In this document: in pieces, positions 5,713 to 22,349 of the stretch
Layout of the letters: every line of letters begins with the position of its first letter
Numbering within the stretch: the first letter of the stretch is position 1
Source of the DNA: Cereibacter sphaeroides 2.4.1
Lineage (GTDB): Bacteria; Pseudomonadota; Alphaproteobacteria; Rhodobacterales; Rhodobacteraceae
DNA length: 32,000 bases
Assembly: GCF_000012905.2 (NCBI RefSeq)
Contig: NC_007493.2
Span: forward strand, 3,060,001 to 3,092,000
Reading direction: 5' to 3'
Notes under the pieces: model-generated
Told to the model about the DNA's origin: nothing
Seen by the model: only the letters and a program-made list of their open reading frames with translations
Databases searched by the model: none
Translations under genes and position numbers: made by a program

Positions 5713-6627
5713 ATGCAGGGAGTGCATCAGGTGGCATTCGCGCGGCGCTATCTGCCCCCGGTGGGGCAGCTTGCGGCCTTCGAGGCGGTGACGCGGACGG
5801 GCTCGACGGCGGCGGCCGCACGCGAGCTCGATCTGACGCAGGGCACGGTGAGCCGGCTGGTGCAGGGGCTCGAGGAGCAGCTGGGCGTGGTGCTGTTTCA
5901 GCGGCAGCGGAAGCGGCTGAGGCCCACGCAGGCGGCGCTGGCCTATGCGGCCGAGGTGCGGCGGGCGCTCGACATTCTCGGGCGCGCCTCGCTGCGGCTC
6001 GCGTCCGACCCGGAGGGCGGGGTGCTGTCGCTGGCGATCCTGCCGACCTTCGGCACGCACTGGCTGGCGCCGCGGCTGCCGGGCTTTCTCAAGGCCCATC
6101 CGGGGGTGACGATCAATCTCGCGACGCGGCTGAAGCCCTTCGAGTTCGAGGGCGAGGAGTTCGACGCGGCGATCCATTTCGGCAGCCCCAGCTGGCCGCG
6201 GGCCGGGCATCTGCGGCTGTTCGGCGAGGGGGTGGTGGCGGTGGCGTCGCCGGAGTTTCTTGCCGCGCATCCGGTGGCGGGGGCTGCGGACCTGCTGGCG
6301 CTGCCGCTCCTCACGCTCGAGACGCGGCCGCGGGGCTGGGCGGGGTGGTTCGCCCATCACGGGGTGGCGGCGGCGGTGCCGCGGGGCATGGTGTTCGACC
6401 AGTTTGCCACCATGATGCAGGCGGCGATCCACGGGATCGGCGTGGCGCTGCTGCCCGAGTTCCTCGCCGGGCCCGCGCTGGCCGAGGGGACGCTGGTGCC
6501 GGCCCATGGCGGCCCGGTCGAGGGGCGGCACGCCTATTGGCTGGTCTGGCCCGAGGACCGCGGCGACCACCCACCGCTCGCGGCCTTCCGCGACTGGCTC
6601 AGGGCCGAGACGGAAGGTCTTGCCTGA
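5713..6627 (+). CDS. LysR-family transcriptional regulator, 304 aa, divergent from gcdH
   Basis: N-terminal HTH ([51 protein letters not shown]) followed by a LysR substrate-binding domain. Inner ATG at 5713. The arrangement mirrors the GcdR-gcdH divergent pair known in Pseudomonas. Confidence 0.85.
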
Positions 6628-7732
6628 CGCCCGCGCGCCAGAGGGCAGCGGGATGGAGGTCGGGGGTCAGGAGGACGAGATCGGCGGGAACGCCGGGCGC
6701 GAGGCGGCCCAGATCGGGGCGGCCGATGGCGCGCGCCGGGGCCGAGGTCGCCATGGCCAGCGCGCGCTCGGGCGGGATGCCGAAGCGCACGAGGGTGCGG
6801 ATGGCCTGCGGCAGGGTCAGATCGGCGCCGGCGAGCGTGCCCGAGGCCAGCGTGAGGCGCCCCCCACGGCGCAGGATGCGCCGGCCGTTCAGCTCGAACC
6901 CGTCGAGGTCGGTGCCCGCCACCGCCATGCAGTCCGAAACGAGGAAGAGACCCTCGGGCTTGGCCGCGAGCGCGATGCGGATCAGCTCGGGGGCGACATG
7001 GTGACCGTCGGCGATGAGGCCGGTCGGCACCGCAGAGGTCAGCGCCGCACCCGGCAGGCCGGGCTCGCGGTGGCCGAGCGGGCTCATCGCGTTGAAGAGA
7101 TGCGTGACGCAGGCGGCCCCGGCAGCGAAGGCCCTGCGGGCCTCGTCCATCGTGCAGTCGGTATGGCCGAGGCTCACGACGATCCCGGCGGCGGCGAGGG
7201 CCGCGATCTGTTCCGGGCGGGCCGCGGCTGGCGAGAGGGTCAGCATGAGCCCCGGCAGGCTCCGGGCGGCCTCGAGATAGAGCGCGAGGTCCGCCTCCTC
7301 CAGCGGGCGGACGAGCTTCCCGTCGTGCGCGCCCTTCTTCGCAGGGTCGATATGAGGCCCTTCGAGATGCAGGCCGAGAAGGCCCGGCGTGCCCGCGGCC
7401 TCCAGCGCGGCGGCAATCACGCTTGCCACGGCGGCGGGCCTGTCGGTGACGAGCGTCGGCAGCACATGGAGGACCCCGAGCCCCTCCTGACTGGCGCAGA
7501 TCCGGGCGAAGGTTGCGGCGGTGGCGGTGCCGTCGAGCATGACGCCGCCGCTGCCGTTCACCTGAAGGTCGATCAGGCCGGGGGCGAGGATGCCCTCCAC
7601 CTGCTCCACCCGTTGTCCGGGCGCCTCTCCGGGAGGCAGGATCGCCGCCACCCGTCCGTCGCAGAGGAGGAGGTCGCCCTCCCGGAAGTCGGCCCCGTCG
7701 AAGAGGGTGGCGCCGCGAAGAACGAGAGACAT
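6599..7732 (-). CDS. nagA: N-acetylglucosamine-6-phosphate deacetylase-like amidohydrolase, 377 aa
   Basis: PGLIDLQVNGSGG, HLEGPHI, SLGHTD and THLFNAM motifs typical of NagA. The start MSLVLRG at 7732 follows an AAGGAG Shine-Dalgarno sequence. The 3' end overlaps the LysR gene 3' end by 29 nt. Confidence 0.8.
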   Translation of the reverse strand: MSLVLRGATLFDGADFREGDLLLCDGRVAAILPPGEAPGQRVEQVEGILAPGLIDLQVNGSGGVMLDGTATAATFARICASQEGLGVLHVLPTLVTDRPAAVASVIAAALEAAGTPGLLGLHLEGPHIDPAKKGAHDGKLVRPLEEADLALYLEAARSLPGLMLTLSPAAARPEQIAALAAAGIVVSLGHTDCTMDEARRAFAAGAACVTHLFNAMSPLGHREPGLPGAALTSAVPTGLIADGHHVAPELIRIALAAKPEGLFLVSDCMAVAGTDLDGFELNGRRILRRGGRLTLASGTLAGADLTLPQAIRTLVRFGIPPERALAMATSAPARAIGRPDLGRLAPGVPADLVLLTPDLHPAALWRAGVRQDLPSRP

Positions 7733-7779
7733 CGGATCTCCTTTTGCGGGAGCGGAAAAATGCACGGAAGCGCCCGGTC

Positions 7780-7798
7780 TTTGACGCTCGTTTGACGC
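7780..7798 (+). promoter_or_regulatory. Tandem direct repeat TTTGACGC-N3-TTTGACGC (11-bp period) upstream of the wHTH-TPR regulator gene
   Basis: Read directly as cTTTGACGCtcgTTTGACGCacc, 56-74 nt upstream of ATG 7854. Each copy contains a -35-like TTGACG. Confidence 0.5.
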
Positions 7799-7853
7799 AC
7801 CGATCACGCAGGGGGGCTAAGGGTCGGGCGGGAAGTCGTCAAGGAGGGTCGCG

Positions 7854-9788
7854 ATGTTGTGCGGGACAGCATCCGCGGTCGGCGCCGCAAGGGTGCAGCC
7901 GTTCATCATCGTAAATGCTTTACCCGGCGTCGCGGCTCGGTCACTGTGGCGTGAGCGGGCGGTTGCCGGGGCAGCGTCCGAGGAACCAGCGGCTGGCCGA
8001 ATGACGGGAGCGTCTCCTGACCTGCGGATGTATCTGTTCGGGCCCTTCACCCTGCTGGGACCCGACGGAGAGGAACTGACTCCGAAATCCCGCAAATCGC
8101 GCGCCATCCTCGCCATGCTGGCGGTGGCGCCTCGGGGCTCGCGCTCGCGCGTCTGGCTGCGCGACAAGCTCTGGAGCGACCGGGGCGAGGATCAGGCCTC
8201 GGCGAGCCTCCGGCAGGCGCTTCTGGATATCCGCAAGTCGCTGGGGCCCCGCGCCGCGCATGTGCTGACGGCGGACAAGAACACGGTCTCGCTGGATCTG
8301 GCGGCGGTGGCGGTGGATGCGCTGGAACTCGCCGCTCGCGAGCGGCGGGGCGAGGACGGCAGCACGGAGCATTTCCTCGAAGGGATCGACGTGCGGGATC
8401 CCGAATTCGAGGACTGGCTGGCGCTGGAGCGCCAGAGTTGGTTCGCGCGCCTCGAAGAGGCCGGCTTCGAGGCCGATCTCGCGCCGCGCCCGGCGCCCTC
8501 GGAGGCGCGGCGCGAGGCGTCGCAGGCGGTGCCGCGCACCTCGCCGCCGGCTGCGCCGCAGCCGCCGCAATCGCTGCTGCGGCAGGAGGACGAGGGCGGC
8601 TGGCGCGTGGCTATGATGCCGCCCGTCATCCTCGGCGGCGATCCGGCGGCGGCGGTGCTGCAGGCCGATGTGCAGCGCGCGCTGCGCCGCGCGCTCGTCG
8701 AGACGGGCGATCTGCGGCTGGTCGACATGGCGCCCGTGGCGCTGGGTGATCTGGGGGCCGGCCTTGCGGGGGGCGGGCTGCTCGCGCGTCTGCCCGAACA
8801 GGTGCATCTGAGCGTGCAGGTCCGGGTTCTGGCGGATCACAGCTACCTCCGCGTCGGGATCGTGCTGCAGAACCCGGCCGACAATGCGCTGGTCTGGTCC
8901 GACGAGGTGATCGTGCCGCGGCGCGAGTCGATCGGCGAGGCGAGCTTTGCCATGCCGCTGATCGTGCGCGCGACCGAAGAGGCGACGCTGCATTTCCTGC
9001 GCCGCCACGGCACCGAGGGGGCCGAGGCCGAGGGGCGGATCGCGGCCGCCGTGGCCTCGATGTTCCGGCTGGCGCGGGGCGATCTCGACCGGTCCGAGGA
9101 GATCCTGCGCCGGCATCTCGACCGGACCCCGACCGCGCAGGGCTATGCCTGGCTGGCCTTCCTCAACACCTTCCGTGTGGGCCAGCGCTTCAATCCCGCC
9201 GACGCGCCGCTGATCGAGGAGACGCAGCATCTCGCACGCCGCGCGCTGGGGCTCGAGCCCAACAATGCGCTGGTCTCGGCGCTGGTGGGCCACATCCACT
9301 CCTACCTCTTCGGCGAGTTCGACTATGCCGCGGCGCTCTTCGAGCAGTCCCTGCGGGTCAATCCGGCGCAGACGCTGGCCTGGGATCTCTATGCCATGCT
9401 CCATGCCTATGCCGGCCAGCCGAAGCGGGCGCTCGCCATGGCGCGCTGGGCGCGTCATCTGGGCGCCTTCAGCCCGCATCGCTACTATTTCGAGACCACC
9501 CGCGCGATCACCGGAAACTTCTCGGGCGATCATCAGACGGCGATCGACGCCGGACAGTCGGCGCTGGCCGAGCGGCCGGACTTCAACTCGCTGCTGCGGG
9601 TGCTGGTCTCGTCGAACGCCCATCTCGACCGGCCCGAGGAAGCGCGGCTGTTCCTCGAGCGGCTGTTGCAGGTCGAGCCGAACTTCTCGGTCGCCTCGCT
9701 GCGGGACGCGGGCTATCCGGGCCTCGATACCGAGGGCGGGCGGCATTTTCTGGATGGTCTCGTGAAGGCGGGCGTGCGCAAGCACTGA
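7854..9788 (+). CDS. Winged-helix (OmpR/SARP-BTAD-like) DNA-binding regulator with central domain and C-terminal TPR repeats
   Basis: MYLFGPFTLLGPDGEELTPKSRKSRAILAMLA...WLRDKLWSDRGEDQASASLRQALLDIRKSL (wHTH), then FLEGIDVRDPEFEDWLALERQSWF (BTAD-like), then a TPR-like C-terminus. The start is ambiguous. ATG 7854 has a strong AAGGAGG Shine-Dalgarno sequence 6 nt upstream, but codons 1-49 are unusually rich in third-position A/T. ATG 8001 is the alternative. Confidence 0.75.
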   Translation: MLCGTASAVGAARVQPFIIVNALPGVAARSLWRERAVAGAASEEPAAGRMTGASPDLRMYLFGPFTLLGPDGEELTPKSRKSRAILAMLAVAPRGSRSRVWLRDKLWSDRGEDQASASLRQALLDIRKSLGPRAAHVLTADKNTVSLDLAAVAVDALELAARERRGEDGSTEHFLEGIDVRDPEFEDWLALERQSWFARLEEAGFEADLAPRPAPSEARREASQAVPRTSPPAAPQPPQSLLRQEDEGGWRVAMMPPVILGGDPAAAVLQADVQRALRRALVETGDLRLVDMAPVALGDLGAGLAGGGLLARLPEQVHLSVQVRVLADHSYLRVGIVLQNPADNALVWSDEVIVPRRESIGEASFAMPLIVRATEEATLHFLRRHGTEGAEAEGRIAAAVASMFRLARGDLDRSEEILRRHLDRTPTAQGYAWLAFLNTFRVGQRFNPADAPLIEETQHLARRALGLEPNNALVSALVGHIHSYLFGEFDYAAALFEQSLRVNPAQTLAWDLYAMLHAYAGQPKRALAMARWARHLGAFSPHRYYFETTRAITGNFSGDHQTAIDAGQSALAERPDFNSLLRVLVSSNAHLDRPEEARLFLERLLQVEPNFSVASLRDAGYPGLDTEGGRHFLDGLVKAGVRKH

Positions 9789-9809
9789 CCCGGCCGATGT
9801 TCCTGGAGG

Positions 9810-10754
9810 ATGAGGATGTGTGAACCCCAACCGGTGGGCGTGGCGGCGTTTCTGAACCGCTATCCGTTCGAGGTGAATGCCGAGCGCGTGCTGCCCGCAG
9901 GCGGCGGCGCGGGCCAGTCGGTCGCGAGCGACGGCTCGGCCGAGGGCAACACGGCGGCCGGGGTCGCGGCCCTGTCGGCCCTCAACAAGTCGGTGCAGAA
10001 CAAGTCGTCTCTCAACAAGAACAAGAACAAGAACAAGAATAAAAACAAGAACAAGAACAAGGTGGCAGGTGCCGGCGGCGGCGCGGCGGCCCTGTCCAGC
10101 CTGATGCCGGCGCTGGAGTTGCGGCGCCTGCATCAGTTGCCGCAGGCCGATCCGTTCACCGTCGCCTCCCGCTTCGTCTGGGAGTGCCTCGACATCTGCC
10201 TGCCACCGGGGCCTGATTTCACCCGTCTCGAGACCGCGGTGATGCTGGCCATGCAGGCCCGCGATGCCGAGCGGATGCGGCGGCTTCCCGACATCCAGGC
10301 CCAGGCTGCCTTCTCGGTCGACGAGTTCCTGCGCCCGCTCGGGATCGAGGGGCTCGCCGGGTACGAGGCGACCGAGGGGCTGTTCCTGAACATCCTGCAG
10401 GCCACGGAATATGTGGGGCTGCTCTACAAGGCACGGATCGACCGCGACCGGCCGAACGTCGTCGAGCCGCGGCTGCGTCCGCTGCTCGCGGTGCCCGCCC
10501 ACCAGAGCTATCCCTCGAACCATTCGTTCCAGGGCCATTCCATCGTCTTCGCCTTCAACGCGATCCTGCCCGAGCATCCCGCGACCGAGGAGTTGCAGCG
10601 CATCGCGCAGAACGTGGCGGAGAACCGGGAATGGGCGGGGCTGCATTTCCCTTCGGACACGCTGGCCGGAAAGGAGCTCGCGCGGCGGTTTGCGCCCTAC
10701 CTGCGCGATGCGTTCGGCGCGGCCTTCCTTGCGGCGCAGGCGGAGTGGCACTGA
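9810..10754 (+). CDS. Soluble PAP2 / vanadium-haloperoxidase-fold protein with a disordered N-terminal Ala/Gly and (Asn-Lys)8 tract
   Basis: All three PAP2 signature motifs are visible: KARIDRDRP (K-x6-RP), YPSNHS (variant of PSGH) and NREWAGLHFPSD (R-x5-H-x3-D). I see no signal peptide or TM helix. It lies 21 nt after the regulator gene. GGAGGA at 9805-9810 favours the second ATG (9816) as the real start. Confidence 0.7.
   Translation: MRMCEPQPVGVAAFLNRYPFEVNAERVLPAGGGAGQSVASDGSAEGNTAAGVAALSALNKSVQNKSSLNKNKNKNKNKNKNKNKVAGAGGGAAALSSLMPALELRRLHQLPQADPFTVASRFVWECLDICLPPGPDFTRLETAVMLAMQARDAERMRRLPDIQAQAAFSVDEFLRPLGIEGLAGYEATEGLFLNILQATEYVGLLYKARIDRDRPNVVEPRLRPLLAVPAHQSYPSNHSFQGHSIVFAFNAILPEHPATEELQRIAQNVAENREWAGLHFPSDTLAGKELARRFAPYLRDAFGAAFLAAQAEWH
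10014..10061 (+). repeat. Hexanucleotide microsatellite (AACAAG)4-AATAAA-(AACAAG)3 encoding (Asn-Lys)8
   Basis: Read directly from the sequence. It is a 48-bp AT-rich tract inside the PAP2-like CDS, preceded by degenerate copies (CTCAACAAGTCG, CAGAACAAGTCG). Confidence 0.95.
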
Positions 10755-10755
10755 C

Positions 10756-12426
10756 ATGGACACGCAGACGATGACTCACGCGGCTCCGGCGCGGGCGGTG
10801 GCCCCCCGCTACTACTGGCTCTGGCATCTGGCGGCGCTGAAGGTGCTGGATGCGGATTTCGGCGCGGCGCCGGAGCCGGTGCCGCCCCTGTCGCAGAGCG
10901 CCCTGCGCGAGGTGCCCGTGCCGCAGATCAGAAGCACGGTCTGGGACCGCATCCCCGGCGGCACCGCCACCGTGGCGCTCATCGATACGGGCGTGAGCCG
11001 CACCCACCCGAACCTCGCGAGCCGGGTGGATGCAGAGCGGTCGATCGATCTGACCACGCACCGCTACGGGGCGCAATCCGTGCCGGTGGCCGATGCGACC
11101 CCCTGGACCCGCGAGGGACGGCGCGCCTTCTTCGCCAACCTCGACCTCGAGGGGCTTCAGCCGCTTCAGCTCTCCTCGCACGAGCAGGACTTTCTCGAGG
11201 CGATGGTCGAGGATTTGCGCCAGTCGCAGGGCGTGACGCGGCCGCTGAGCGATGGAGACGAGAGCTTTTCTGCCCACGGCACCGCCTGCGCGGGTTTGAT
11301 CGTGGGCGAGCCTGCGGCCGTGGCGCCGGGCACCGGCGCGCTTCTGCCTCCCGCCGAGGCCTTCCCGGACGGCGAGCCCAATCCGAACGGCAATCTCCTG
11401 CCCTATTTCGGGGTCGATCCCTTCTCGCGCCTGCTCTCGATCCGCACCTCGTTCGAGAGCGATCCCTATCAGTTCATCACGGCTTTCCTCTATGCCTGGC
11501 AGCACAAGGTGGATGCAATCGTGCTGCCGCGCGGCCTGCCCGATCCGGTGCGCGCGCCGCTCCAGCCGAAGGAGGATCTGAAGGCCGATCTCGAAACCTG
11601 GAAGAGCCGCGATGCGGCGGATCTCTTCCAGCGGCTGCAGATGCTCGGCAACGGGTCGGGGGATCCGGATGCGGCGCAGGCGGGATTCCAGCCCGACCGG
11701 CCCTGGAAGATCCTCTCGCACCTGATCCAGGCGATCTCGCGCCACATCCCCATCGTCTGCGCCGCCGGAAACGACGGCGAGAGCCAGCTCATCTACCCGG
11801 CCAGCCTCGCCGACGACTCGAACGGCATCGTCTCGGTCGGGGCGGTCACGGCAGAAGGGCTGCGCGCCGGCTATTCGAACTACGGCGAGGGTCTGACGCT
11901 GGTGGCGCCCTCGGACGATTACCCGGTCTACAACCGTCACCAGATGCGGCTGAACAGGTTCGATCCGCTGATCGGGCTGCACGATTATGCGGTGGGCGCG
12001 GGGCGCGAGCATGTCTACTGCCCGCTCGAACTGGTCACGACCGATCTGCCCGGCGTCTTCGGCTATGACAGCGGGGCGCAGCCCTGGGCTCAGGTCATGC
12101 CCGCGCAGGGCAACCCCGGTCTCGGCGGCGGCTACTACACCGGCTTCGGCGGCACGTCGGGTGCCTCGGCGCTGGTGGGCGGGCTTCTGGCGCTGGCCCA
12201 GCGGGCGCGCCGGGCCGCCGGTAAGGCGCCGCTCGGCGGGCACGCGCTGAAGCGTCTGCTCCGGCGGGCCTCCTCCACCGCCGCGGTCGTCGCGCCGGGC
12301 TACCGGCCGCTGACGCCCGATACGATGAACGCGGACGACGAGACCCTCCTCGGGCCGGCGGCCTTCTTCGGAGCAGGTCTGCCCGACGCACGGCTGCTGG
12401 TCGAGGAGGCCGTGGCCCATCCGTGA
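10756..12426 (+). CDS. S8 (subtilisin-like) serine peptidase, 556 aa, no signal peptide
   Basis: Complete triad plus oxyanion Asn: VALIDTGV (Asp), SAHGTACAGLIVG (His), VCAAGNDG (Asn), GFGGTSGASALVGG (Ser). The inner ATG at 10756 is one nt after the PAP2-like stop. The N-terminus MDTQTMTHAAPARAVAPRYYW is not signal-like. Confidence 0.85.
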   Translation: MDTQTMTHAAPARAVAPRYYWLWHLAALKVLDADFGAAPEPVPPLSQSALREVPVPQIRSTVWDRIPGGTATVALIDTGVSRTHPNLASRVDAERSIDLTTHRYGAQSVPVADATPWTREGRRAFFANLDLEGLQPLQLSSHEQDFLEAMVEDLRQSQGVTRPLSDGDESFSAHGTACAGLIVGEPAAVAPGTGALLPPAEAFPDGEPNPNGNLLPYFGVDPFSRLLSIRTSFESDPYQFITAFLYAWQHKVDAIVLPRGLPDPVRAPLQPKEDLKADLETWKSRDAADLFQRLQMLGNGSGDPDAAQAGFQPDRPWKILSHLIQAISRHIPIVCAAGNDGESQLIYPASLADDSNGIVSVGAVTAEGLRAGYSNYGEGLTLVAPSDDYPVYNRHQMRLNRFDPLIGLHDYAVGAGREHVYCPLELVTTDLPGVFGYDSGAQPWAQVMPAQGNPGLGGGYYTGFGGTSGASALVGGLLALAQRARRAAGKAPLGGHALKRLLRRASSTAAVVAPGYRPLTPDTMNADDETLLGPAAFFGAGLPDARLLVEEAVAHP

Positions 12427-12475
12427 GAAGGATTGCTGCCGGAGCCCGAGGTCGCATCCGCGGCGCATCTTGAGA

Positions 12476-12494
12476 TTTGACGGATGTTTGACGG
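12476..12494 (+). promoter_or_regulatory. Second copy of the tandem direct repeat, TTTGACGG-N3-TTTGACGG (11-bp period), upstream of the L12-CTD-like repeat gene
   Basis: Read directly as aTTTGACGGatgTTTGACGGgtc, 63-81 nt upstream of ATG 12557. It has the same orientation, period and core as 7780-7798. Confidence 0.5.
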
Positions 12495-12556
12495 GTCCGT
12501 TACGGTGGAGTCACACCGTTGGAGGCAAGCTGACCGGAGAAAACAGGGAGCAAGCC

Positions 12557-13450
12557 ATGTCTGCCACAGTGGCATCGTCACATGAGGTGCGTGTAACCCT
12601 CGTCTCCGCACCAGCGCGCCCCGGCCTCGCCGCGGGCGTGATATCGGATCACCTCGGCCTCGACCGGCCGCAGGTCACCCGGCTCCTGACCCGCGAGGGC
12701 GGGGTGCTGGCCGAGGCGGTGGCGCGGCCGGTGGCCGAGCGTCTGGTGCCGCTCCTTCTGGCGCTGGGCGTGACGGTCAGGCTCGATCCCTCGGGCAGCG
12801 CCGAGGCGGCCCTGCCGGTTGACGTGGCGGTTCAGCCGGTGCGGATGCCCTCCGAGGGAACGGTGGCGCGGCTCGCGGCACAACTCTTCTACGACGGGGA
12901 TGCTCTGCGCACGGCGCTCGCCCGGCCGCAGGGCCTTGTGCTCCGGATGGGGCGCCGCGAGGCCGAGACGCTGAGGCGGAGCTTCCGGCGCGACGGCAGT
13001 GTGCGGATCGCGCTGTCGAACGTGGCTGGCGCGCGGTTCGACCTGTTTCTCAAGCCCGGATGCAGGATGAGCGCGGGGCTCGAGACGCTCCTGCGCAGGC
13101 TCGGGCTCAGGCCGTGTCTGTTCAGCGGTGCGGTGGGCGCGGGCCTGAGCGCCCGAACCGCGGCTCTGGTGGTGCGCCAGCACGGCGGTCTGGTCGATGC
13201 CGTCAATCGGGATTTCCAGCGCTTCGACCTGTTTCTGGCAGGCGGACGCGAACTCTCGCGCCCGGACCTCGCCGATTTCCTCGCCACCCGGGCCCGGGTC
13301 GAGCGGACGCGCCTGCTCTCGCCCGCCGAGGCCCGCAGCATCCGGCTCGAGGCGGGGCTGAGCCGCGCGGCGGCGCGCCGCTTCCATGAGGATTACGCCG
13401 CCATCGGCCTCGACACCCGGATCGAACTGGTCGCGCTCGCGGAGGGCTGA
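12557..13450 (+). CDS. Hypothetical protein, 297 aa, made of four tandem ~65-75 aa repeats resembling the ribosomal L7/L12 C-terminal domain (ClpS-like fold)
   Basis: Inner ATG at 12557 with an AGGGAG Shine-Dalgarno sequence 6 nt upstream. The repeats begin VRVTLVS, VDVAVQP, RFDLFLKPG and RFDLFLAGG (compare E. coli L12 EFDVILKAAG). They end in G(L/V)S-x3-A-x9-G-x4-(L/V)-like helix-strand units (compare L12 [23 protein letters not shown]). High GC3 is consistent with coding. Confidence 0.6.
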   Translation: MSATVASSHEVRVTLVSAPARPGLAAGVISDHLGLDRPQVTRLLTREGGVLAEAVARPVAERLVPLLLALGVTVRLDPSGSAEAALPVDVAVQPVRMPSEGTVARLAAQLFYDGDALRTALARPQGLVLRMGRREAETLRRSFRRDGSVRIALSNVAGARFDLFLKPGCRMSAGLETLLRRLGLRPCLFSGAVGAGLSARTAALVVRQHGGLVDAVNRDFQRFDLFLAGGRELSRPDLADFLATRARVERTRLLSPAEARSIRLEAGLSRAAARRFHEDYAAIGLDTRIELVALAEG

Positions 13451-13460
13451 AGTCCGGGAA

Positions 13461-13475
13461 TTAAGGCTCCCTTCA
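13461..13475. promoter_or_regulatory. CtrA-box-like motif TTAA-N7-TTCA upstream of motB
   Basis: TTAAggctcccTTCA, 50-64 nt upstream of ATG 13525. It is one of only four TTAA tetranucleotides I could find in the window. Confidence 0.4.
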
Positions 13476-13524
13476 CCCGCCGCCCTTAGGGTGGCTCCCG
13501 GGTGTGTATGAACGGGGTGCCGGG

Positions 13525-14361
13525 ATGGCAGGGCAGTCAAATGCCGCGCCAGTCGTCATCAAGCGGAAGAAGGTCGTGCAGGGGGGCGGGCATCATGGCG
13601 GTGCCTGGAAGGTCGCCTATGCCGATTTCGTGACGGCCATGATGGCCTTCTTCATGCTGATGTGGCTGCTGAACGCGACGACGGAGAAACAGCGCAAGGG
13701 GCTCGCGGACTATTTCAATCCGACGATTCCGATGAACCGCGTGTCGGGCGGGGGCGAAGGGGCCTTCGGCGGCAACTCGGTCTTCCACGACCAGACCATG
13801 ACCCAGACCGGCACCGGGGCGGCCAACGACCGCGCGACGGCCGAGCTGAAGGCAAGCGGCGAGATGGGTCAGGAGGGGGCGGACGCCGCCGAGCAGAAGC
13901 AGCTCGAGGAGGTCGAGAAAATGCTCAAGGCCCGTTCGGGCGAGAGCATGACCATGCAGCGGCTCCTCCGCCATGTTGTGACCCGGATCACCGACGAGGG
14001 GCTGGTCATCGAGATCTTCGATCTGCCGGACGTGCCCCTCTTCTTCGGCGACACCGACCAGCCCGAGGCCGTGCTGCCGCAGATCGCCCGCCTCCTGGCC
14101 GAGATCCTGCCGATCACCACCAACAGGATCGCCGTGAACGGCCATATGCGCAGCTACCCGATCACGTTGATCCGCAATCCGGTCTGGGACATCTCGGCCG
14201 CCCGGGCGCAACGGATGCGCGGCCTGCTCGAATCGGAGGGCCTGCCGGGCGAGCGGATGCAGCGCGTCTCGGGCTTCGCCGACCGCAAGATCGTCACGCC
14301 GGATCCGATGGCGGTGCGAAACAACAGACTCGAGGTAATTCTCCTGCGCCGCGACCGCTGA
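13525..14361 (+). CDS. motB: Flagellar stator protein MotB
   Basis: GGAWKVAYADFVTAMMAFFMLMWLL (TM helix with the conserved Asp) and an OmpA-like C-terminus (ISAARAQRMRGLLESEGLP...NNRLEVILL). The start could also be GTG 13504. Confidence 0.85.
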   Translation: MAGQSNAAPVVIKRKKVVQGGGHHGGAWKVAYADFVTAMMAFFMLMWLLNATTEKQRKGLADYFNPTIPMNRVSGGGEGAFGGNSVFHDQTMTQTGTGAANDRATAELKASGEMGQEGADAAEQKQLEEVEKMLKARSGESMTMQRLLRHVVTRITDEGLVIEIFDLPDVPLFFGDTDQPEAVLPQIARLLAEILPITTNRIAVNGHMRSYPITLIRNPVWDISAARAQRMRGLLESEGLPGERMQRVSGFADRKIVTPDPMAVRNNRLEVILLRRDR

Positions 14362-14383
14362 ACGCTCAGGCGACACGGCGGCG

Positions 14384-14398
14384 TTAGGCGGGTGTTAA
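14384..14398. promoter_or_regulatory. CtrA-box-like motif TTAG-N7-TTAA upstream of flgE
   Basis: TTAGgcgggtgTTAA, 58-72 nt upstream of ATG 14456. It sits in the loop of a GC-rich inverted repeat (14376-14382 / 14399-14405). Confidence 0.4.
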
Positions 14399-14455
14399 GC
14401 CGCCGCGCGCATTTTCGGGCGATCAAGGGCTCGAAGCAGCAGAAAGGCGCTTTCC

Positions 14456-15853
14456 ATGACGATCTCTTCTTCGCTCAATGCGGGGGTGGCGGGACTCAAT
14501 GCCAACGCCACCAAGCTCGCGACCATTGCCGACAATATCGCCAATTCCGGCACCTATGGGTACAAGCGCGCCGATGCCGATTTCGAGAGCATGGTCATCA
14601 CGCAGTCGGCCAATGGCGGCTCCTACGCCGCGGGCGGGGTGCGGGCCAACACCATACGGCGGGTGGAGGAATGGGGCGCCCCCGTCTCGACCGCGAGCGC
14701 CCTGGATATCGCCATCTCCGGCCGCGGGATGCTGCCCGTGATCCGCGAAACCTCCCTCGGCGCCAGTTCGGGCAATGAGGCGCTGCTGATGACGCGGACC
14801 GGCTCCTTCGCCACCGATCCGAGCGGTGTGCTGAAGACGGACACCGGCCTCGTGCTCCTGGGCTGGCCTGCGACGGCCGACGGCACGATCCCCACCATGT
14901 CGCGCGATTCCATTGCCCAGCTCGAGCCGGTCGTGATCGCCGCGAACCAGACCGCGGCGGATCCCACCACGCGGATCAACCTCGGCGTCAACCTTCCGGC
15001 CGAAGAGACCAAGTACGGCGCGTCCGGTCGCGTTCTGACGGTCTCGGTGGAGTATTTCGGCAACCTCGGCACGTCGGAAACCCTGTCGGTCAGCTACCAT
15101 CCGACGCTGCCGGCGGCCGCGGGAGACCCGCCGACGAACAACTGGACGATGGTCATCCGGGATTCCGCCAATGCCGACAAGGTCATCGGCATCTATACGA
15201 TGCAATTCAGCGATGCCCGCAGCGGCGGCGGCACGATCCTTGACGATACCGCCATCACCCCGCTCAACACGGTGACGCTCGACGGCACCACCTACACGGT
15301 CGAGAATGCGGGCTCGACGCCCCCGGACAGCAGCCCGGCCTACGATCCGCTGACGGGCGGCATCGTTCTGGAAGTGGCGGGGAATGCGGACAATAAGATC
15401 GCGATGACCTTGGGCAAGCCCGGCAGCGCGAACGCCATGACGCAGGTTTCAGGCGATTTCGCCCAGACCGGGATCACCAAGGATGGCTCGCCGGTGGGCA
15501 ACCTCACGGGGGTCGAGATCGACGACGGCGGCTTCATGCGCGCCACCTACGACACGGGGTTCACCCGCGTGATCTACCAGGTGCCGCTGGTCGACGTGCC
15601 GAACTACAACGGGCTCACCGCCCTGAACAACCAGACCTTCGCGATCTCGCCGGATTCAGGCAATTTCTACCTCTGGGACGCCGGCGATGGGCCCACGGGC
15701 GACGTTCTGGGCTATGCGCGCGAGGGATCCACCACTGATGTCGCGACCGAGCTCACCAACCTCATCCAGACCCAGCGCGCCTATTCCTCGAATGCCAAGA
15801 TCATCCAGACGGTGGATGAGATGCTGCAGGAAACCACCAATCTCAAGCGCTGA
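14456..15853 (+). CDS. flgE: Flagellar hook protein FlgE
   Basis: N-terminus MTISSSLNAGVAGLNANATKLATIADNIANSGTYGYK and C-terminus TNLIQTQRAYSSNAKIIQTVDEMLQETTNL are canonical axial-protein termini of FlgE. Confidence 0.95.
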   Translation: MTISSSLNAGVAGLNANATKLATIADNIANSGTYGYKRADADFESMVITQSANGGSYAAGGVRANTIRRVEEWGAPVSTASALDIAISGRGMLPVIRETSLGASSGNEALLMTRTGSFATDPSGVLKTDTGLVLLGWPATADGTIPTMSRDSIAQLEPVVIAANQTAADPTTRINLGVNLPAEETKYGASGRVLTVSVEYFGNLGTSETLSVSYHPTLPAAAGDPPTNNWTMVIRDSANADKVIGIYTMQFSDARSGGGTILDDTAITPLNTVTLDGTTYTVENAGSTPPDSSPAYDPLTGGIVLEVAGNADNKIAMTLGKPGSANAMTQVSGDFAQTGITKDGSPVGNLTGVEIDDGGFMRATYDTGFTRVIYQVPLVDVPNYNGLTALNNQTFAISPDSGNFYLWDAGDGPTGDVLGYAREGSTTDVATELTNLIQTQRAYSSNAKIIQTVDEMLQETTNLKR

Positions 15854-18313: not shown

Positions 18314-19404
18314 TGCTCATTCGTCTTCTCCTCCTGGTGATCTGCCTGGCGGGTCCGGGCGTTGCGGAGGAAATCCGCATCAAGGACCTCGTACGATTCG
18401 ACGGTGTCCGGGGTAACGACCTTTTGGGCTACGGCCTTGTCGTCGGCCTCAACGGCACGGGCGACGGCTTACGCAACGCGCCCTTCACCGAAGACATCAT
18501 GTCCAATCTGCTCGAGCGGCTGGGCGTGAACGTGACAGGCGAGCAGTATCGGCCGAAAAACGTGGCGGCAGTGTTCGTTACGGCCACGCTGCCCCCCTTT
18601 GCCCGGGCCGGGGCACAGATCGATGTGACCGTTTCGGCGATGGGCGATGCGAAGAGCCTGCTGGGCGGGACGTTGGTGATGACGCCATTGAACGGCGCGG
18701 ATGGTCAGATATATGCGGTGGCACAAGGAACAATCATTGCGGGCGGAGTCTCGGCCGAGGGGCAGGCCGCGCGCGTGGTTCAGGGGGTGCCCACGGCAGG
18801 CACCATTCCTGAAGGCGCCCGAGTGGAACGTGAGGTCGAATTCGAGTTTGCGCGCCTCGACAGGGTTCGTCTGGCGCTGCGATCACCCGACTTCACCACC
18901 GCCGGACGTATCGAGGATCGGATCAATCGCGAGCTTGGCCGGGGCGTGGCAACCATGCTCGATGCAGGGACGGTCTCCCTCGACCTCGGAAGGCTGGGCC
19001 CGCCGGCCCGGGTCATGGGCCGGATCGAGAATCTCGAGGTCGTACCGGAGACGGTGGCGCGGGTTGTGGTGGACCAGCGATCCGGCACGATCGTGATGGG
19101 CGAGGACGTCCGGATCAGCCGGGTCGCGGTGGCGCAAGGCGGCCTGACGCTTCGCGTGGAAGAACAGCCGATGGTGGTTCAGCCCAACCCCTTCAGCCGG
19201 GGGGAGACGGTGGTCGTTCCGCGCACGACAGCCTCGATCCAGCAAAGACCCGGGACCGGCCTCGCCGAAATACCGGCAGAGACCTCGCTTTCACGTGTCG
19301 TGGCGGGCCTCAACGCGCTGGGCGTGGCGCCCAACGACATGATCGATATCCTCAAGAGCATCCATGCCGCCGGGGCGCTTCATGCAGAATTCATCGTGAG
19401 ATGA
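18313..19404 (+). CDS. flgI: Flagellar P-ring protein FlgI
   Basis: Signal peptide MLIRLLLLVICLAGPGVA, then IRIKDLVRFDGVRGNDLLGYGLVVGLNGTGD and C-terminal LNALGVAPNDMIDILKSIHAAGALHAEFIV. The ATG overlaps the flgL stop (TGATG). Confidence 0.95.
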   Translation: MLIRLLLLVICLAGPGVAEEIRIKDLVRFDGVRGNDLLGYGLVVGLNGTGDGLRNAPFTEDIMSNLLERLGVNVTGEQYRPKNVAAVFVTATLPPFARAGAQIDVTVSAMGDAKSLLGGTLVMTPLNGADGQIYAVAQGTIIAGGVSAEGQAARVVQGVPTAGTIPEGARVEREVEFEFARLDRVRLALRSPDFTTAGRIEDRINRELGRGVATMLDAGTVSLDLGRLGPPARVMGRIENLEVVPETVARVVVDQRSGTIVMGEDVRISRVAVAQGGLTLRVEEQPMVVQPNPFSRGETVVVPRTTASIQQRPGTGLAEIPAETSLSRVVAGLNALGVAPNDMIDILKSIHAAGALHAEFIVR

Positions 19405-22229
19405 GGGCGCCTGCCGACCAATCGGGCCACCCCGTCCAGCAGGGCCTCATCGCCGAACGGCTTGGCGAGCACGGCGACCCGGGGCCGGAACTCCTCATCC
19501 GGCACCCGGCTGTCGCCCGTGGCGAAGAGGATCGGCAGATCGGGGTGGAGCGCGCGGGCCGCCCGGGCCAGGTCCACGCCGCTCATGTCGGGCAGGCCCA
19601 GATCGACCAGCAGCAGATCGGCCGCACCGTGCTGCAGTACGCTCAGGGCGGCCTCGCCGGAGCCGGCCTGCGAGACCCGGCACCCCGCCTCCGTCAGACC
19701 TTCGACAAGGTTCATCCGGATGATGACATCATCCTCGCAGACGAGGACATGGATATTCTTCAAACCGTCTTCCTCGGGAGGGCCGCTCGCACCGCTGACA
19801 AGAACCTCCCGGATCTTCCGGGCCAGAGCTTCCTGCGTATAGGGCTTGCTGAGCAGATGCACGCCGCTGTCGAGCCGTCCGCCGTGAACGATGGAGTTCT
19901 GCGTGTAGCCCGAGGTGAAGAGCACCGGCAGTCCCGGGCGCAAGCCGCGCGTCTTCTCCGCGAGCTGACGGCTCGTCAACTTGCCCGGCATGACCACGTC
20001 GGTGAAGAGAAGGTCGATCCGTGCACCGCTTTCCACGATCGTGAGCGCGCGGTCCGCGTCCTTGGCCTGCAGAACCGAATAGCCGAGATCCTGCAGCAGG
20101 CCCGCCGCGGTGGATCGCACCTGCTCGTCATCCTCCACCAGCAGGATGGTCTCGGTTCCTCCCGTCATGGGGCCGGTGGCGAGGGGTCGCATTGCGTCCT
20201 CGGCCTCCAGCGACCGGGGAAGATAGATCTTGATGGAGGTTCCGTTGCCGAGCTCGCTGTAGATCTTGACGTGGCCGCCCGACTGTTTGACGAACCCGTA
20301 GACCATGGACATGCCGAGTCCTGTGCCGCGCCCTTCCGCCTTGGTGGTGAAGAACGGCTCGAACACGCGCTCGATCACCTCCGGGGACATGCCGCAGCCC
20401 GTATCGGTCACGGCAAGCATCACATACTGGCCCGGCTCGAGGTCGGGATGGCCGCGCGTATAGATGTCGTCCAGGAAGGAGTTCCCGATCTCGATGGTGA
20501 GACGCCCGCGCCCCTCCATCGCGTCCCGGGCATTGATTGCGAGATTGAGGATCGCGGTCTCGACGTTGGCGGGGTCGACGCAGGTGTTCCAGAGCCCGCC
20601 AGCCACCAGAGTCTCGACCTCGACCCCCTCGCCCACGGCGCTCCGGACGATGTGGTCCGCGTCGCGCAGCAGACGTCCCAGGTTGATGACCCGAGGCGCA
20701 AGGGGCTGCCTGCGTCCGAAGGCCAGCAGCTGTGACGCGAGCGTCGCCCCGCGCTCGACCGCGCGAAGAGCCTGGTCGAGACGCGGGCGCGCGGCGTGAT
20801 CCTCGTCAAGAGCGCGAAGAGAGAGCTGGATACTGCCCGTGATCGTCTGCAGGAGATTGTTGAAATCATGCGCGATTCCGCCCGCCAGATTTCCGATCGC
20901 CTCCATCTTCTGGCTCTGGCGCAACGTATCGCTCATTTCTTCGAGCTCACGGTTGCGCTGCTGCACCCGCTCCTCCAGCGCAGCATTCAGACCCGCGATG
21001 GCTTCCTCGGCAACCTTGCGATCCTCGATATCCGTGTTGGTCCCGATCCAGCGCAGGATCCGGCCCTGATCGTCGCGGATCGGCAGGGCGCGCGACAGAT
21101 GCCAGCGATCGGCGCGGTCGTGGCGCCGGATCCGCAGCTCGCGCTCGAAGGCGGTTCCCTGGGCCAGCGATTGCACCCAGGCCGCTTCCGCCTGCGGCCT
21201 GTCTTCCGGCCGGACGATCGCCATGGGCGGCAGGCCGATCAGGTCGGCTTCGGTGCGTCCGCAATAGTCGAGGAGCCGGTCGTTCAGCCAGTCGAGCCGC
21301 CCTTCGGGCGTGGCCGTCCAGACGTGGTTGGGCATGGTCTGGGCCATGGTCCGGAACCGCTCGCGCGTCTCGATCACCTCGGCCTCGGCAATCTTCTGGC
21401 GCGTCACGTCATGTCCCTCGACGAAGACGCCGCGCACCTGTCCGTCGGGTCCCCTCAGCGGGCACATGATGAAATCGACGAAACTGCGCTCGATCTCGGG
21501 GCCGCGCCGGAGCAGCACGGGCGCCGCCAGCCGGGTGAATGCGAGCCCCGTCAGGAAGACCTCGTCGAGGAGTTCGAAGAAGCCCTGGCCGTCGAGTTCG
21601 GGCAGCGCCTCGCGGACCGTGCGGTTCAGCAGGTCTCGGCGGCCGACGAGCTGGTGGTAGGCCTGGTTCACGATGCGGAAGATATGGTCGCGCCCGTCGA
21701 GCACGGCCATGAAGCTCGGCGCCTGGTCGATCGCGCTGCGAAAGAAGTCGACCGCGCTGCCGAGTTCGAGATTCTGACGCGTGACCGCTTCGGCCCGCTG
21801 GAGCATCCTGGCCTGATCGTTCGGTTGGGAAGAGGTCCGATCCTCACGATACAGCGCCGTGATGTCGTTGGTGTTCTGAAGGATGAACTCGACGTGGCCC
21901 TCGGCATCCTTGATGGGCGTATTGGTCGCGCTCCAGAACCGCTCCTCCATCCGGCCGTCCTGATTGCGGATCGGATAGGGAATCAGCGGCAAATGGTCCG
22001 GTCGGCCCTGCTCGACCGCGCGGCGCAAGGAGGCGCGCAGCATCTGGTCCGGGATGGACTCGGCCTCTGCGGGGAAGACGTCGAACATGCGGCGCCCGAC
22101 AACCTCGTCGCGCGCCAGACCCGTGGCGCGCAGGTAGGCGGCATTGGCCCAGATCATCGTGAGATCCCGGTCAAGAAGGACGTAGGGCGATGGGTCTTCG
22201 GCAAATATCTTGTCGAGGGCGACGAGCAT
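19380..22229 (-). CDS. Hybrid sensor histidine kinase: three PAS domains, HisKA, HATPase and two receiver domains; 949 aa
   Basis: H-box AGGIAHDFNNLLQTI, N-box LNLAINARDAM, G-boxes DTGCGM and GTGLGMSMV. REC1 is ILLVEDDEQV...DLLFTDVVMPG and REC2 is VLVCEDDVII...DLLLVDLGLPDMSG. An AAGGAG Shine-Dalgarno sequence precedes the ATG at 22229. Confidence 0.9.
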   Translation of the reverse strand: MLVALDKIFAEDPSPYVLLDRDLTMIWANAAYLRATGLARDEVVGRRMFDVFPAEAESIPDQMLRASLRRAVEQGRPDHLPLIPYPIRNQDGRMEERFWSATNTPIKDAEGHVEFILQNTNDITALYREDRTSSQPNDQARMLQRAEAVTRQNLELGSAVDFFRSAIDQAPSFMAVLDGRDHIFRIVNQAYHQLVGRRDLLNRTVREALPELDGQGFFELLDEVFLTGLAFTRLAAPVLLRRGPEIERSFVDFIMCPLRGPDGQVRGVFVEGHDVTRQKIAEAEVIETRERFRTMAQTMPNHVWTATPEGRLDWLNDRLLDYCGRTEADLIGLPPMAIVRPEDRPQAEAAWVQSLAQGTAFERELRIRRHDRADRWHLSRALPIRDDQGRILRWIGTNTDIEDRKVAEEAIAGLNAALEERVQQRNRELEEMSDTLRQSQKMEAIGNLAGGIAHDFNNLLQTITGSIQLSLRALDEDHAARPRLDQALRAVERGATLASQLLAFGRRQPLAPRVINLGRLLRDADHIVRSAVGEGVEVETLVAGGLWNTCVDPANVETAILNLAINARDAMEGRGRLTIEIGNSFLDDIYTRGHPDLEPGQYVMLAVTDTGCGMSPEVIERVFEPFFTTKAEGRGTGLGMSMVYGFVKQSGGHVKIYSELGNGTSIKIYLPRSLEAEDAMRPLATGPMTGGTETILLVEDDEQVRSTAAGLLQDLGYSVLQAKDADRALTIVESGARIDLLFTDVVMPGKLTSRQLAEKTRGLRPGLPVLFTSGYTQNSIVHGGRLDSGVHLLSKPYTQEALARKIREVLVSGASGPPEEDGLKNIHVLVCEDDVIIRMNLVEGLTEAGCRVSQAGSGEAALSVLQHGAADLLLVDLGLPDMSGVDLARAARALHPDLPILFATGDSRVPDEEFRPRVAVLAKPFGDEALLDGVARLVGRRPHLTMNSA

Positions 22230-22349
22230 CGTTCGGCTCCTTCAGAATTGGCCGCAGGATGACGGGGTTGCGCGGCAGCGGCAAGGGCAGACATGCGGCA
22301 ACAGGACGCACTCTCCCCTCGGCGCGGGAGGCCGTGCTATGGTCGGCGA

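Follow-up and report, generated by a model that had tools for sequence, protein, structure and literature searches.

A three-gene module with a SARP-like regulator and two predicted operators at the edge of the Fla2 flagellar cluster of Cereibacter sphaeroides

The 32,000-nt window of the Cereibacter sphaeroides 2.4.1 genome analyzed here (contig NC_007493.2, positions 3,060,001 to 3,092,000 of the forward strand) lies at the edge of the Fla2 flagellar cluster and contains four adjacent same-strand genes, called G1 to G4. Their products resemble, in this order, SARP-type regulators, class A acid phosphatases, S8 subtilases and tandemly repeated ClpS domains. G1, G2 and G3 form a widely conserved three-gene unit, referred to as the trio, that is undescribed in the literature searched. 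Two arrays of direct heptamer repeats flank it: P1 upstream of G1 and P2 downstream of G3. The best explanation, and in our judgement probably the right one, is a SARP-type autoregulated module with a second promoter that supplies a flagellar operon at its first gene. In a preliminary description of this DNA, made from the nucleotide sequence, the four genes had been taken as one cassette. Unit and regulation are redrawn here as a three-gene SARP-type module with two operators, the second of which has captured G4. Synteny, arrays and promoter geometry support the regulatory level well, and the biochemical roles of G2, G3 and G4 are inferred.

The conservation of the trio was investigated in a genome scan in which each GTDB species was represented by a single genome. 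It returned 98 relatives; 80 of them were retained, and gene order was determined by tblastn. At 79 of these 80 species-level loci (loci are designated by L numbers) the order G1, G2, G3 was preserved, with gaps of tens of bases and at ~40% to 97% identity. The taxa include Cereibacter, Cypionkella, Rhizobium, Neorhizobium, Phyllobacterium, Aminobacter, Pseudorhizobium, Aliiroseovarius, Roseibium and one gammaproteobacterial metagenome-assembled genome (MAG), and two far more distant metagenomic loci also carry the trio. Synteny of genes 1 to 3 therefore extends over several orders, Rhodobacterales and Rhizobiales among them, and is not confined to close relatives. In Rhizobium leguminosarum, Aminobacter and a Paracoccaceae MAG, a ~320-aa gene and a ~600-650-aa TPR gene precede the S8 gene in contexts that are otherwise unrelated. 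The S8 gene was present in 70 plasmid records, 62 of them from Rhizobium. The loci of Aminobacter and Mesorhizobium carry the trio and P1 without P2 and without any downstream cargo, which indicates that the trio is functional alone and that G2 and G3 are themselves outputs. The preliminary description was exact on the gaps between the four genes (21, 1 and 130 nt), and genes 1 to 3, which it had placed on one transcript, behave as one operon. In the most distant trio (L092, 3627-7464) the BTAD regulator is apparently split into 486 and 83 aa and is accompanied by a 339-aa S8 protein and a short PAP2 protein that begins MYNKNKNK. This copy adjoins two transposase genes (rve and DDE_Tnp_ISL3), a sign that it may be mobile and decaying.

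Five copies of the heptamer TTTGACG were counted in the window, where 1.9 were expected. Four of them form two pairs with an 11-bp period (7780/7791 and 12476/12487), and both pairs run on in register into additional, degenerate heptamers. The loci were searched on the coding strand for the pattern T.AC[GA]-N6-T.AC[GA], P2 being sought within 450 nt past the stop codon of the S8 gene. An array was found 5' of G1 in 69 of 72 loci and 3' of the S8 gene in 63 of 78; from shuffled windows (mean 1.6 loci, maximum 6) 1.6 loci were expected in each case. Arrays of three heptamers were present at 39 loci for P1 and at 56 for P2 against ~0.07 expected, and elsewhere the pattern matched only 102 more times in 1.61 Mb with both strands counted. 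The paired TTTGACG element, noted at both sites in the preliminary description, is thus a real and conserved cis-element. The P1 consensus from 62 distinct sequences was tTTgACG-N4-tTTgACG-N4-nnTgACa, followed after 8 nt by cTA, and the P2 consensus comprised four heptamers. In SARP-dependent promoters the direct repeats are 11 or 22 bp apart and the 3' repeat lies 8 bp from the -10 element (PMC10936776). P1 has this geometry both in the window and in the consensus, and P2 has the repeat spacing. The P2 array is also conserved upstream of G4 homologues in L002-L005, L095 and L097; at G4 loci further removed, a CTTAAC...TCAC motif takes the upstream place of the TTGACG array. G1 is the sole DNA-binding protein that accompanies both arrays on chromosomes and plasmids, from which we infer that both arrays are bound by G1 and that P1 and P2 are activated by it.

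Pfam searches of G1 returned TPR_19 (E 6.8e-6) and a weak match to Trans_reg_C (E 0.05). When a profile of the N-terminal region (G1 ~50-200, 15 orthologues) was compared with the PDB, AfsR (8HVR, E 7.5e-4) and EmbR (2FEZ, E 8.9e-4) were retrieved ahead of ToxR, and the winged helix of the SARP family was thus recovered from this profile; full-length G1, searched as a single sequence and as a profile, matched generic TPR proteins only. The orthologues share the near-invariant stretch LTPKSxKSxAILAMLAxAPRGSRSRVWLRDKLWSDRGEDQASASLRQALLDIRKSLG, followed by the conserved helix FLEGxDxxDPEFEDWLxLER, which corresponds to the first helix of BTAD and is all that is left of this domain in G1. A linker of variable sequence separates this helix from an alpha/beta region, and the TPRs come last. 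The regulator of the distant trio L092 has a full BTAD (E 1.2e-11) and is 40% identical to G1 over 151 aa, and the NCBI name of the record identical to G1 (ABA80479) is 'SARP family transcriptional regulator'. On the available sequence evidence G1 is best called SARP-derived. The earlier reading as a winged-helix/BTAD-TPR regulator held for the TPRs and, weakly, for the winged helix, and failed for BTAD, which had no Pfam match in G1.

Pfam confirmed the PAP2 fold of G2 (E 3.8e-6), and a profile search against the PDB returned the Pseudomonas aeruginosa acid phosphatase 7F17 (E 1.7e-19). The AlphaFold2 (AF2) model showed an all-helical PAP2 fold with a predicted local distance difference test score (pLDDT) above 90 at residues 125-314. 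Its best Foldseek match was again 7F17 (E 4.9e-7, target template-modelling (TM) score 0.73). The three-part signature KX6RP, PSGH and SRX5HX3D is represented by K207ARIDRDRP, P235SNH and R273EWAGLHFPSD; among 30 homologues K207, R214, S236, H238 and R273 were invariant and H279 and D283 were conserved in at least 90%. Hydropathy gave no signal peptide (12-residue maximum of 0.88 within the first 46 aa) and hence nothing that would mark the protein as secreted or periplasmic. G2 is a predicted cytoplasmic phosphatase with intact catalytic motifs. A vanadium haloperoxidase was considered and rejected, as the TM score of ~0.3 in Foldseek was far below those of the acid phosphatases.

Within its ~120-aa N-terminal extension G2 carries an (Asn-Lys)8 tract. 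An uninterrupted (Asn-Lys)n tract, (NK)n, was present in 79 of the 80 G2 orthologues of the genome scan, with n = 4-11, and the remaining one (L067) reads NKNKNR. Short forms of G2 also keep the tract, its codons vary synonymously (AAC/AAT, AAG/AAA), and at one distant locus (Asn-Arg)n stands in its place. The retention of the repeat, its synonymous codon variation and the (Asn-Arg)n of the distant copy together indicate that the tract is selected at the protein level.

G3 matched Peptidase_S8 (PF00082) with E 6.4e-21 and 75.3 bits against a cutoff of 21.8, confirming the S8 assignment of the preliminary description. The catalytic residues D77 (ALIDTGV), H174 (HGT) and S468 (GTSGA), in the triad order of the S8 family, and the oxyanion residue N339 (AAGND) were invariant in 18 homologues of 50-83% identity. 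The protein has no propeptide, and its catalytic Asp and Ser are set apart by insertions of ~170 aa in all. In Rhodobacterales and Rhizobiales the homologues of full length and at least 50% identity numbered more than 250. The nearest solved structures were Bacillus intracellular and extracellular subtilisins (E ~1e-10), with the intracellular one at the top of the list. G3 is predicted to be a cytoplasmic, catalytically intact subtilase. Hydropathy agreed with the earlier statement that none of the three non-regulatory products has a signal peptide or transmembrane helix, and extended it to G1: in 19-residue Kyte-Doolittle windows no transmembrane-like hydrophobic stretch was found in G1-G4, the maxima being 1.05-1.46 against 1.73 for the MotB control.

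The AF2 model of G4 (pLDDT 89.8) consisted of four tandem beta-alpha-alpha-beta-alpha-beta domains. The best PDB matches in Foldseek were ClpS and the C-terminal domain (CTD) of L7/L12, with best target TM scores of 0.6-0.8; among the top 50 matches those to ClpS and L12 had a probability of 0.96-1.00, target TM scores of 0.44-0.81 and root-mean-square deviations of 1.6-3.1 Å. E-values were only ~0.01-0.3 because one domain of four aligns. Identity to the structural matches was 14-31%, and G4 matched no Pfam or NCBIfam family, ClpS and L12 included. As modelled, G4 has a ClpS-like alpha/beta fold that favors neither L12 nor ClpS. The fourfold L7/L12-CTD-like repeat of the preliminary description was thus borne out as a fold, and the 'translation-factor-binding' character attached to it was not, since it rested on the fold, for which ClpS is an equal match. 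Relatives of G4 numbered 32 in the first homologue search and 457 clusters at E<=1e-3 in a profile search. A G4-like subgroup of ~360-400 aa occurs in other organisms (proteins P0325-P0373). In a short, low-GC metagenome contig of the Joint Genome Institute (L112) a TPR-like gene, and not motB, follows the G4-like protein, so the tandem ClpS-like family reaches beyond flagellar contexts.

Linkage of G4 to motB and flgE was judged in the G4 loci with enough sequence. A G4 homologue lay directly upstream of motB-flgE in L001-L006, L012-L020, L038, L094-L099, L101-L106, L108 and L109, the exception being L107 with motB ~3 kb beyond G4. In Fertoebacter nigrum and two MAGs, G4 directly precedes motB-flgE-flgK-flgL-flgI, with unrelated metabolic genes upstream and no regulator, PAP2 or S8 gene nearby. 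A metagenome scan yielded 17 more G4 loci, two of which had an intact trio upstream; G4-motB-flgE without an intact trio upstream was counted at 15 loci. None of the trio copies in Rhizobiales is accompanied by G4. Its absence there and its position beside motB without the trio identify G4 as a gene of the flagellar cluster that is only transcriptionally coupled to the trio via P2, and for these reasons the four-gene cassette does not stand. Published descriptions of the cluster begin at motB (PMC12363192), which makes G4 an unrecognized candidate member. MotK and MotE, newly described stator partners of Fla2, were rejected as identities of G4, both being periplasmic and encoded after motA2 (PMC10954123). 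The L095 locus (6334-6794) retains short pieces of two trio genes, G1 (67% identity along 91 aa) and G3 (65% along 34 aa), immediately before a P2-G4-motB segment that is intact. The trio has apparently been lost there by a natural deletion that spared the second operator.

CtrA-box-like sites were found in the G4-motB2 and motB2-flgE2 spacers (Table 1). The first is consistent with the listing of the motB2 regulatory region among the best predicted CtrA sites (PMC6180460), and the second falls within the flgE2 promoter region that was studied in the same paper. A scan of 7600-14600 gave no terminator-like hairpin between G4 and motB2, and read-through from P2 into the motB2 stator and hook genes is possible.

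The genes behind P2 differ between lineages. The cargo is G4 in the Cereibacter/Rhodobacter/Cypionkella group. In Rhizobium and Neorhizobium it consists of two enzymes, an aKG-HExxH-type peptide beta-hydroxylase with an above-cutoff match to TIGR04267 (E 8.4e-21) and a member of the ThiF family, together with a 65-aa open reading frame (ORF). Rhizobium sp. BK602 (L021) has a protein resembling radical SAM/SPASM maturases of RiPPs (peptides made by the ribosome and then modified post-translationally; best E 4e-43), and the first ORF past P2 in Peteryoungia (L040) and in the related L044 isolate is homologous to that of L021. In Pseudorhizobium and Neorhizobium xiangyangii P2 is followed by a conserved ~71-aa peptide, in Phyllobacterium by a basic ORF of 78-84 aa, and in two lineages from the sea by a second, mycosin-like (secreted-type) S8 protein. 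Such diversity agrees with the picture of an invariant switch whose outputs can be exchanged. The ~71-aa ORF, located right after P2 at L023 11174, L034 4432, L039 11949 and L068 11949, has a hydrophobic N-terminus and a C-terminal FG(S/A)NK(A/S)GDYYEGA(L/F)P, and matched no Pfam family; it could be a secreted peptide or a precursor. In R. leguminosarum (L008, 11756-11810) the called start codon of the HExxH gene falls inside the fourth P2 heptamer, and an ATG ~140 nt downstream (11937), preceded by a Shine-Dalgarno sequence, is more plausible. Public gene models of the HExxH family therefore probably carry a wrong N-terminus. On the conjugative R. leguminosarum plasmid pRLgr12_2 (L111, 11000-11392) a TfuA-like gene, another RiPP-associated marker near the Rhizobium module, lies ~500 bp past the S8-HExxH-ThiF block, separated from it by an 85-aa ORF and a DUF982 gene.

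In the mechanism that we propose, G1 would be a SARP-like activator that combines an OmpR-type winged helix with a TPR sensor region. Its protomers would bind side by side on TTNACG heptamers, one DNA turn apart, and the heptamers would stand in for a proper -35 element at two promoters. P1 would drive G1-G2-G3, giving positive autoregulation, and P2 would drive whichever gene lies downstream. G2 and G3, never separated from G1, would be the constant output of the switch and would probably also act on it or on one another; among candidate protease substrates, G2's disordered (NK)n extension is the most obvious. In C. sphaeroides and related Paracoccaceae, a signal sensed by the TPR region would thereby be coupled to G4 and, if P2 transcripts extend that far, perhaps to stator and hook genes as well.

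Several points weigh against this mechanism. The Trans_reg_C match of G1 was sub-threshold and was obtained in 3 of 20 orthologues, and BTAD (PF03704) gave no match at E<=0.05 in G1 and 19 aligned orthologues, so that G1 is SARP-derived and not a canonical SARP. The -10-like element of P2, GGCAAG, is poor. As the loci share common descent, the locus counts overstate the number of independent observations. In front of G4, arrays of the P2 type are kept without an adjacent trio in L002, L003 and L004/5, where either the trio lies elsewhere in the genome or another factor uses the site. The action of G2 and G3 on G1 or on each other, which we consider probable, is purely a proposal, and the literature searched never mentions these genes.

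The neighbors of P2 in rhizobia invite a different explanation, in which the trio is the conserved core of a RiPP-like or small-molecule pathway and G1 its cluster-situated, SARP-like activator. The S8 protein would then be a leader or processing peptidase with the (NK)n N-terminus of G2 or a small P2 peptide as substrate, and the P2 genes would be tailoring genes specific to each lineage. SARPs classically govern biosynthetic clusters (PMC10936776), HExxH enzymes operate in RiPP pathways (PMC12636437), and the HExxH hydroxylase, ThiF enzyme and 65-aa ORF follow P2 in Rhizobium and Neorhizobium, as do the maturase-like gene in L021, the homologous first ORFs in L040 and L044, and the ~71-aa peptide in Pseudorhizobium and Neorhizobium xiangyangii. 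G3 also weakly matches PatA/PatG-type maturation proteases. The Rhizobium-type copies thus have HExxH, ThiF and radical SAM/SPASM enzymes, whereas the window holds neither a precursor peptide nor a dedicated modifying enzyme, which makes the feature lineage-specific, and the C. sphaeroides and Aminobacter copies lack a tailoring enzyme, a recognizable precursor and an exporter. G4 is a folded 297-aa protein tied to motB and no tailoring enzyme, and the P2 genes, which extend to a secreted-type S8 protein and a 78-84-aa basic ORF, are too varied for one pathway. We know of no precedent for a precursor placed N-terminal to a 190-aa phosphatase domain, which also counts against this pathway; we rank it second and hold it to be unlikely. 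A cell-autonomous peptide-signal circuit, of a type so far undescribed and built on the same proteins, appears quite improbable to us. Here the subtilase would cut the (Asn-Lys)n segment off the phosphatase, the cut either activating the phosphatase or freeing NK-rich peptides, the product would be read by the TPRs of G1, and the regulator would amplify its own operon together with a lineage-specific output. That this output would be the first gene of the flagellar stator/hook operon in C. sphaeroides and a peptide-modification pathway in rhizobia is likewise a long shot.

The SARP-type module with G1 as the cognate regulator also has to be weighed against control of the heptamers by an unlinked regulator, for example another OmpR-family protein such as PhoB, CtrA, or a BTAD/TPR paralogue as in L004, with the targets of G1 elsewhere. 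Pho boxes are likewise 7-bp direct repeats with an 11-bp period and G2 is phosphatase-like; P2-G4 promoters without an adjacent trio exist, and in L004 the BTAD/TPR paralogue lies 8 kb from G4. TTNACG, however, is neither a Pho box (CTGTCAT) nor a CtrA box (TTAA-N7-TTAA), separate CtrA-like sites stand beside motB2 and flgE2, and the L004 paralogue is 29% identical to G1 and has no heptamer array at its own promoter. Across orders the arrays moreover move together with the trio, on chromosomes as well as plasmids and into surroundings that are otherwise unrelated, and such co-movement requires a linked cognate factor, so that we regard an unlinked one as rather improbable. The preliminary description had suggested that the four genes could be a set of stress or anti-phage effectors, with protease, phosphatase and repeat protein acting jointly. 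Cytoplasmic, potentially harmful enzymes under a TPR regulator with predicted positive feedback would suit an abortive-infection-like logic, and the trio is found in unrelated genomic contexts and often on large Rhizobium plasmids (the 70 plasmid records). Against this, none of G1-G4 matched any family in PADLOC-DB v2 (5027 models, E<=1), which agrees with the earlier statement that the set is uncharacterized and belongs to no named defence or toxin-antitoxin system. No defence genes were present in the neighborhoods examined, G4 lies outside the conserved unit, the composition is native and no mobile-element genes flank the genes within the window. With no positive evidence in its favor, an effector set seems very unlikely. 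That independently acting genes have come together by chance holds for G4 in relation to the trio as far as gene content is concerned; for G1-G2-G3 it is excluded by the synteny at 79 of 80 loci and the conservation of both flanking arrays, and as an account of the whole it is hardly credible.

The features of the locus are collected in Table 1. The records ABA80479, ABA80481 and ABA80482 are identical to G1, G3 and G4, no record with exactly the G2 sequence was found, and G1-G4 correspond roughly to RSP_1298-1301, the second flagellar set spanning RSP1302-RSP1330 (PMC3024229). The long form of G1 is supported by its orthologues, which likewise begin ML. On the 5' side G1 is preceded by a NagA-like amidohydrolase gene (- strand) and a LysR regulator gene. 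On the 3' side G4 is followed by motB2-flgE2-flgK2-flgL2-flgI2, then by genes for a PAS hybrid kinase and a helix-turn-helix (HTH) protein, and by fliP. The GC content at third codon positions was 0.86-0.89 in G1-G4 and in the neighboring genes, in line with the native composition reported earlier. An NCBIfam search of the four proteins added nothing specific, an Rfam scan of 7000-14600 gave one sub-threshold small RNA match only, within the amidohydrolase gene, and a sigma-70 consensus scan of 7600-14600 gave zero sites. Between flgI2 and fliP2 lie the genes of a 949-aa hybrid kinase with three PAS domains, HisKA, HATPase and a receiver (19380-22229, - strand) and of a 360-aa HTH_13 protein (22293-23375, + strand), which are the two non-flagellar genes described as interrupting the C. 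sphaeroides cluster (PMC12363192).

Table 1. Features of the locus in window coordinates, or in residues (aa) where indicated.
Feature	Position	Strand	Description
P1 operator-promoter (predicted)	7780-7822	+	TTTGACG 7780-7786, TTTGACG 7791-7797, GATCACG 7802-7808; 8-nt spacer; -10-like CTAAGG 7817-7822
G1	7854-9788	+	AAGGAGG at 7841-7847 precedes ATG
G1 architecture	aa ~57-150; ~400-640		OmpR-type winged helix (~57-150); low-complexity linker; alpha/beta middle region; C-terminal TPRs (~400-640)
G2	9810-10754	+	21-nt gap after G1
G2 architecture	aa 1-30; 33-97; ~125-314		N-terminal small domain (1-30); disordered segment (33-97); PAP2 fold (~125-314)
(Asn-Lys)8 tract	10014-10061	+	G2 aa 69-84, inside the ~120-aa N-terminal extension
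G3	10756-12426	+	1-nt gap after G2
P2 operator-promoter (predicted)	12476-12529	+	TTTGACG 12476, TTTGACG 12487, CGTTACG 12498, AGTCACA 12509-12515; 8-nt spacer; GGCAAG
G4	12557-13450	+	130-nt gap after G3
G4 domains	aa 10-78, 87-155, 161-217, 223-291		Four tandem domains of predicted ClpS/L7-L12-CTD fold; 297 aa
CtrA-box-like site	13461-13478	+	TTAA-N7-TTCA; G4-motB2 spacer; assigned to the flagellar operon, not to the trio
motB2	13525-14361	+	MotB_plug match; first recognized gene of the Fla2 cluster
CtrA-box-like site	14380-14397	-	TTAAC-N7-TAAC; motB2-flgE2 spacer

SARPs and their repeat boxes are regarded as an actinomycete speciality tied to antibiotic clusters. The same promoter logic is seen here in a compact alphaproteobacterial module that is strictly conserved in ~80 species and often plasmid-borne in rhizobia. 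The module pairs its regulator with two enzymes that are normally exported and are here predicted to be cytoplasmic, and its two operators and one regulator form a testable regulon. Each component falls within a known superfamily and carries a generic annotation. The trio as a unit, its operators, the predicted cytoplasmic site of both enzymes, the (NK)n tract and the link to Fla2 are undescribed in the literature searched. In C. sphaeroides a predicted non-CtrA promoter lies directly before G4, beside motB at the edge of the Fla2 cluster. The natural signals that induce Fla2 are still to be found, as wild-type cells do not express fla2 in the laboratory (PMC11999139). G4 itself is a candidate for a new flagellar-associated family, with 457 sequence clusters and four predicted ClpS-like domains.

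Among known systems the SARP activators are the closest relatives at the regulatory level. G1 shares the N-terminal OmpR-type winged helix with AfsR and ActII-ORF4 of Streptomyces and EmbR of Mycobacterium, and the C-terminal TPR region with the 'large' SARPs. The targets are alike in their direct heptamer repeats, one per helical turn, with the last repeat 8 bp before the -10 element and in place of a good -35, and in some lineages the trio, like SARPs, lies beside RiPP-type biosynthetic genes. G1 differs from SARPs in having no detectable BTAD beyond the first helix and no NB-ARC/NOD ATPase, with an unassigned alpha/beta region between linker and TPRs. The gene for G1 invariably stands together with those for a PAP2-fold enzyme and an S8 peptidase, its host is alphaproteobacterial and not actinobacterial, and its predicted targets have 3-4 repeats at P1 and P2 where SARP targets have two. 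G2 resembles the class A acid phosphatases (PhoN, PhoC, EB-NSAP and 7F17) in its predicted fold (TM ~0.7) and in the three PAP2 motifs. The known enzymes of this class are exported to the periplasm or secreted, whereas G2 lacks a signal peptide, adds the ~120-aa N-terminal extension with its conserved (Asn-Lys)n and is always operonic with a subtilase and a regulator. With the intracellular subtilisins of Bacillus, G3 shares the Asp/His/Ser triad, the oxyanion Asn and the lack of a signal peptide and of an I9 propeptide. The similarity is very distant (E ~1e-10, over short stretches), and with its ~170 aa of insertions G3 belongs to a family of its own, with more than 250 alphaproteobacterial members at no less than 50% identity. 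Each modelled domain of G4 superposes on the ~70-80-residue fold of the ClpS N-degron adaptor and the L7/L12 CTD (target TM 0.6-0.8), but G4 has four tandem copies in one chain and adjoins motB, not clpA or ribosomal genes. A functional analogy, and that only, can be drawn to RRNPP signalling (Rap, NprR, PlcR and PrgX with Phr-type peptides that subtilisins mature), through the combination of TPR regulator/phosphatase logic with an S8 protease and a short peptide segment of repetitive sequence. RRNPP systems are those of Firmicutes, their HTH is not a winged helix, and their peptides are exported and re-imported, whereas everything in the trio is predicted to be cytoplasmic.

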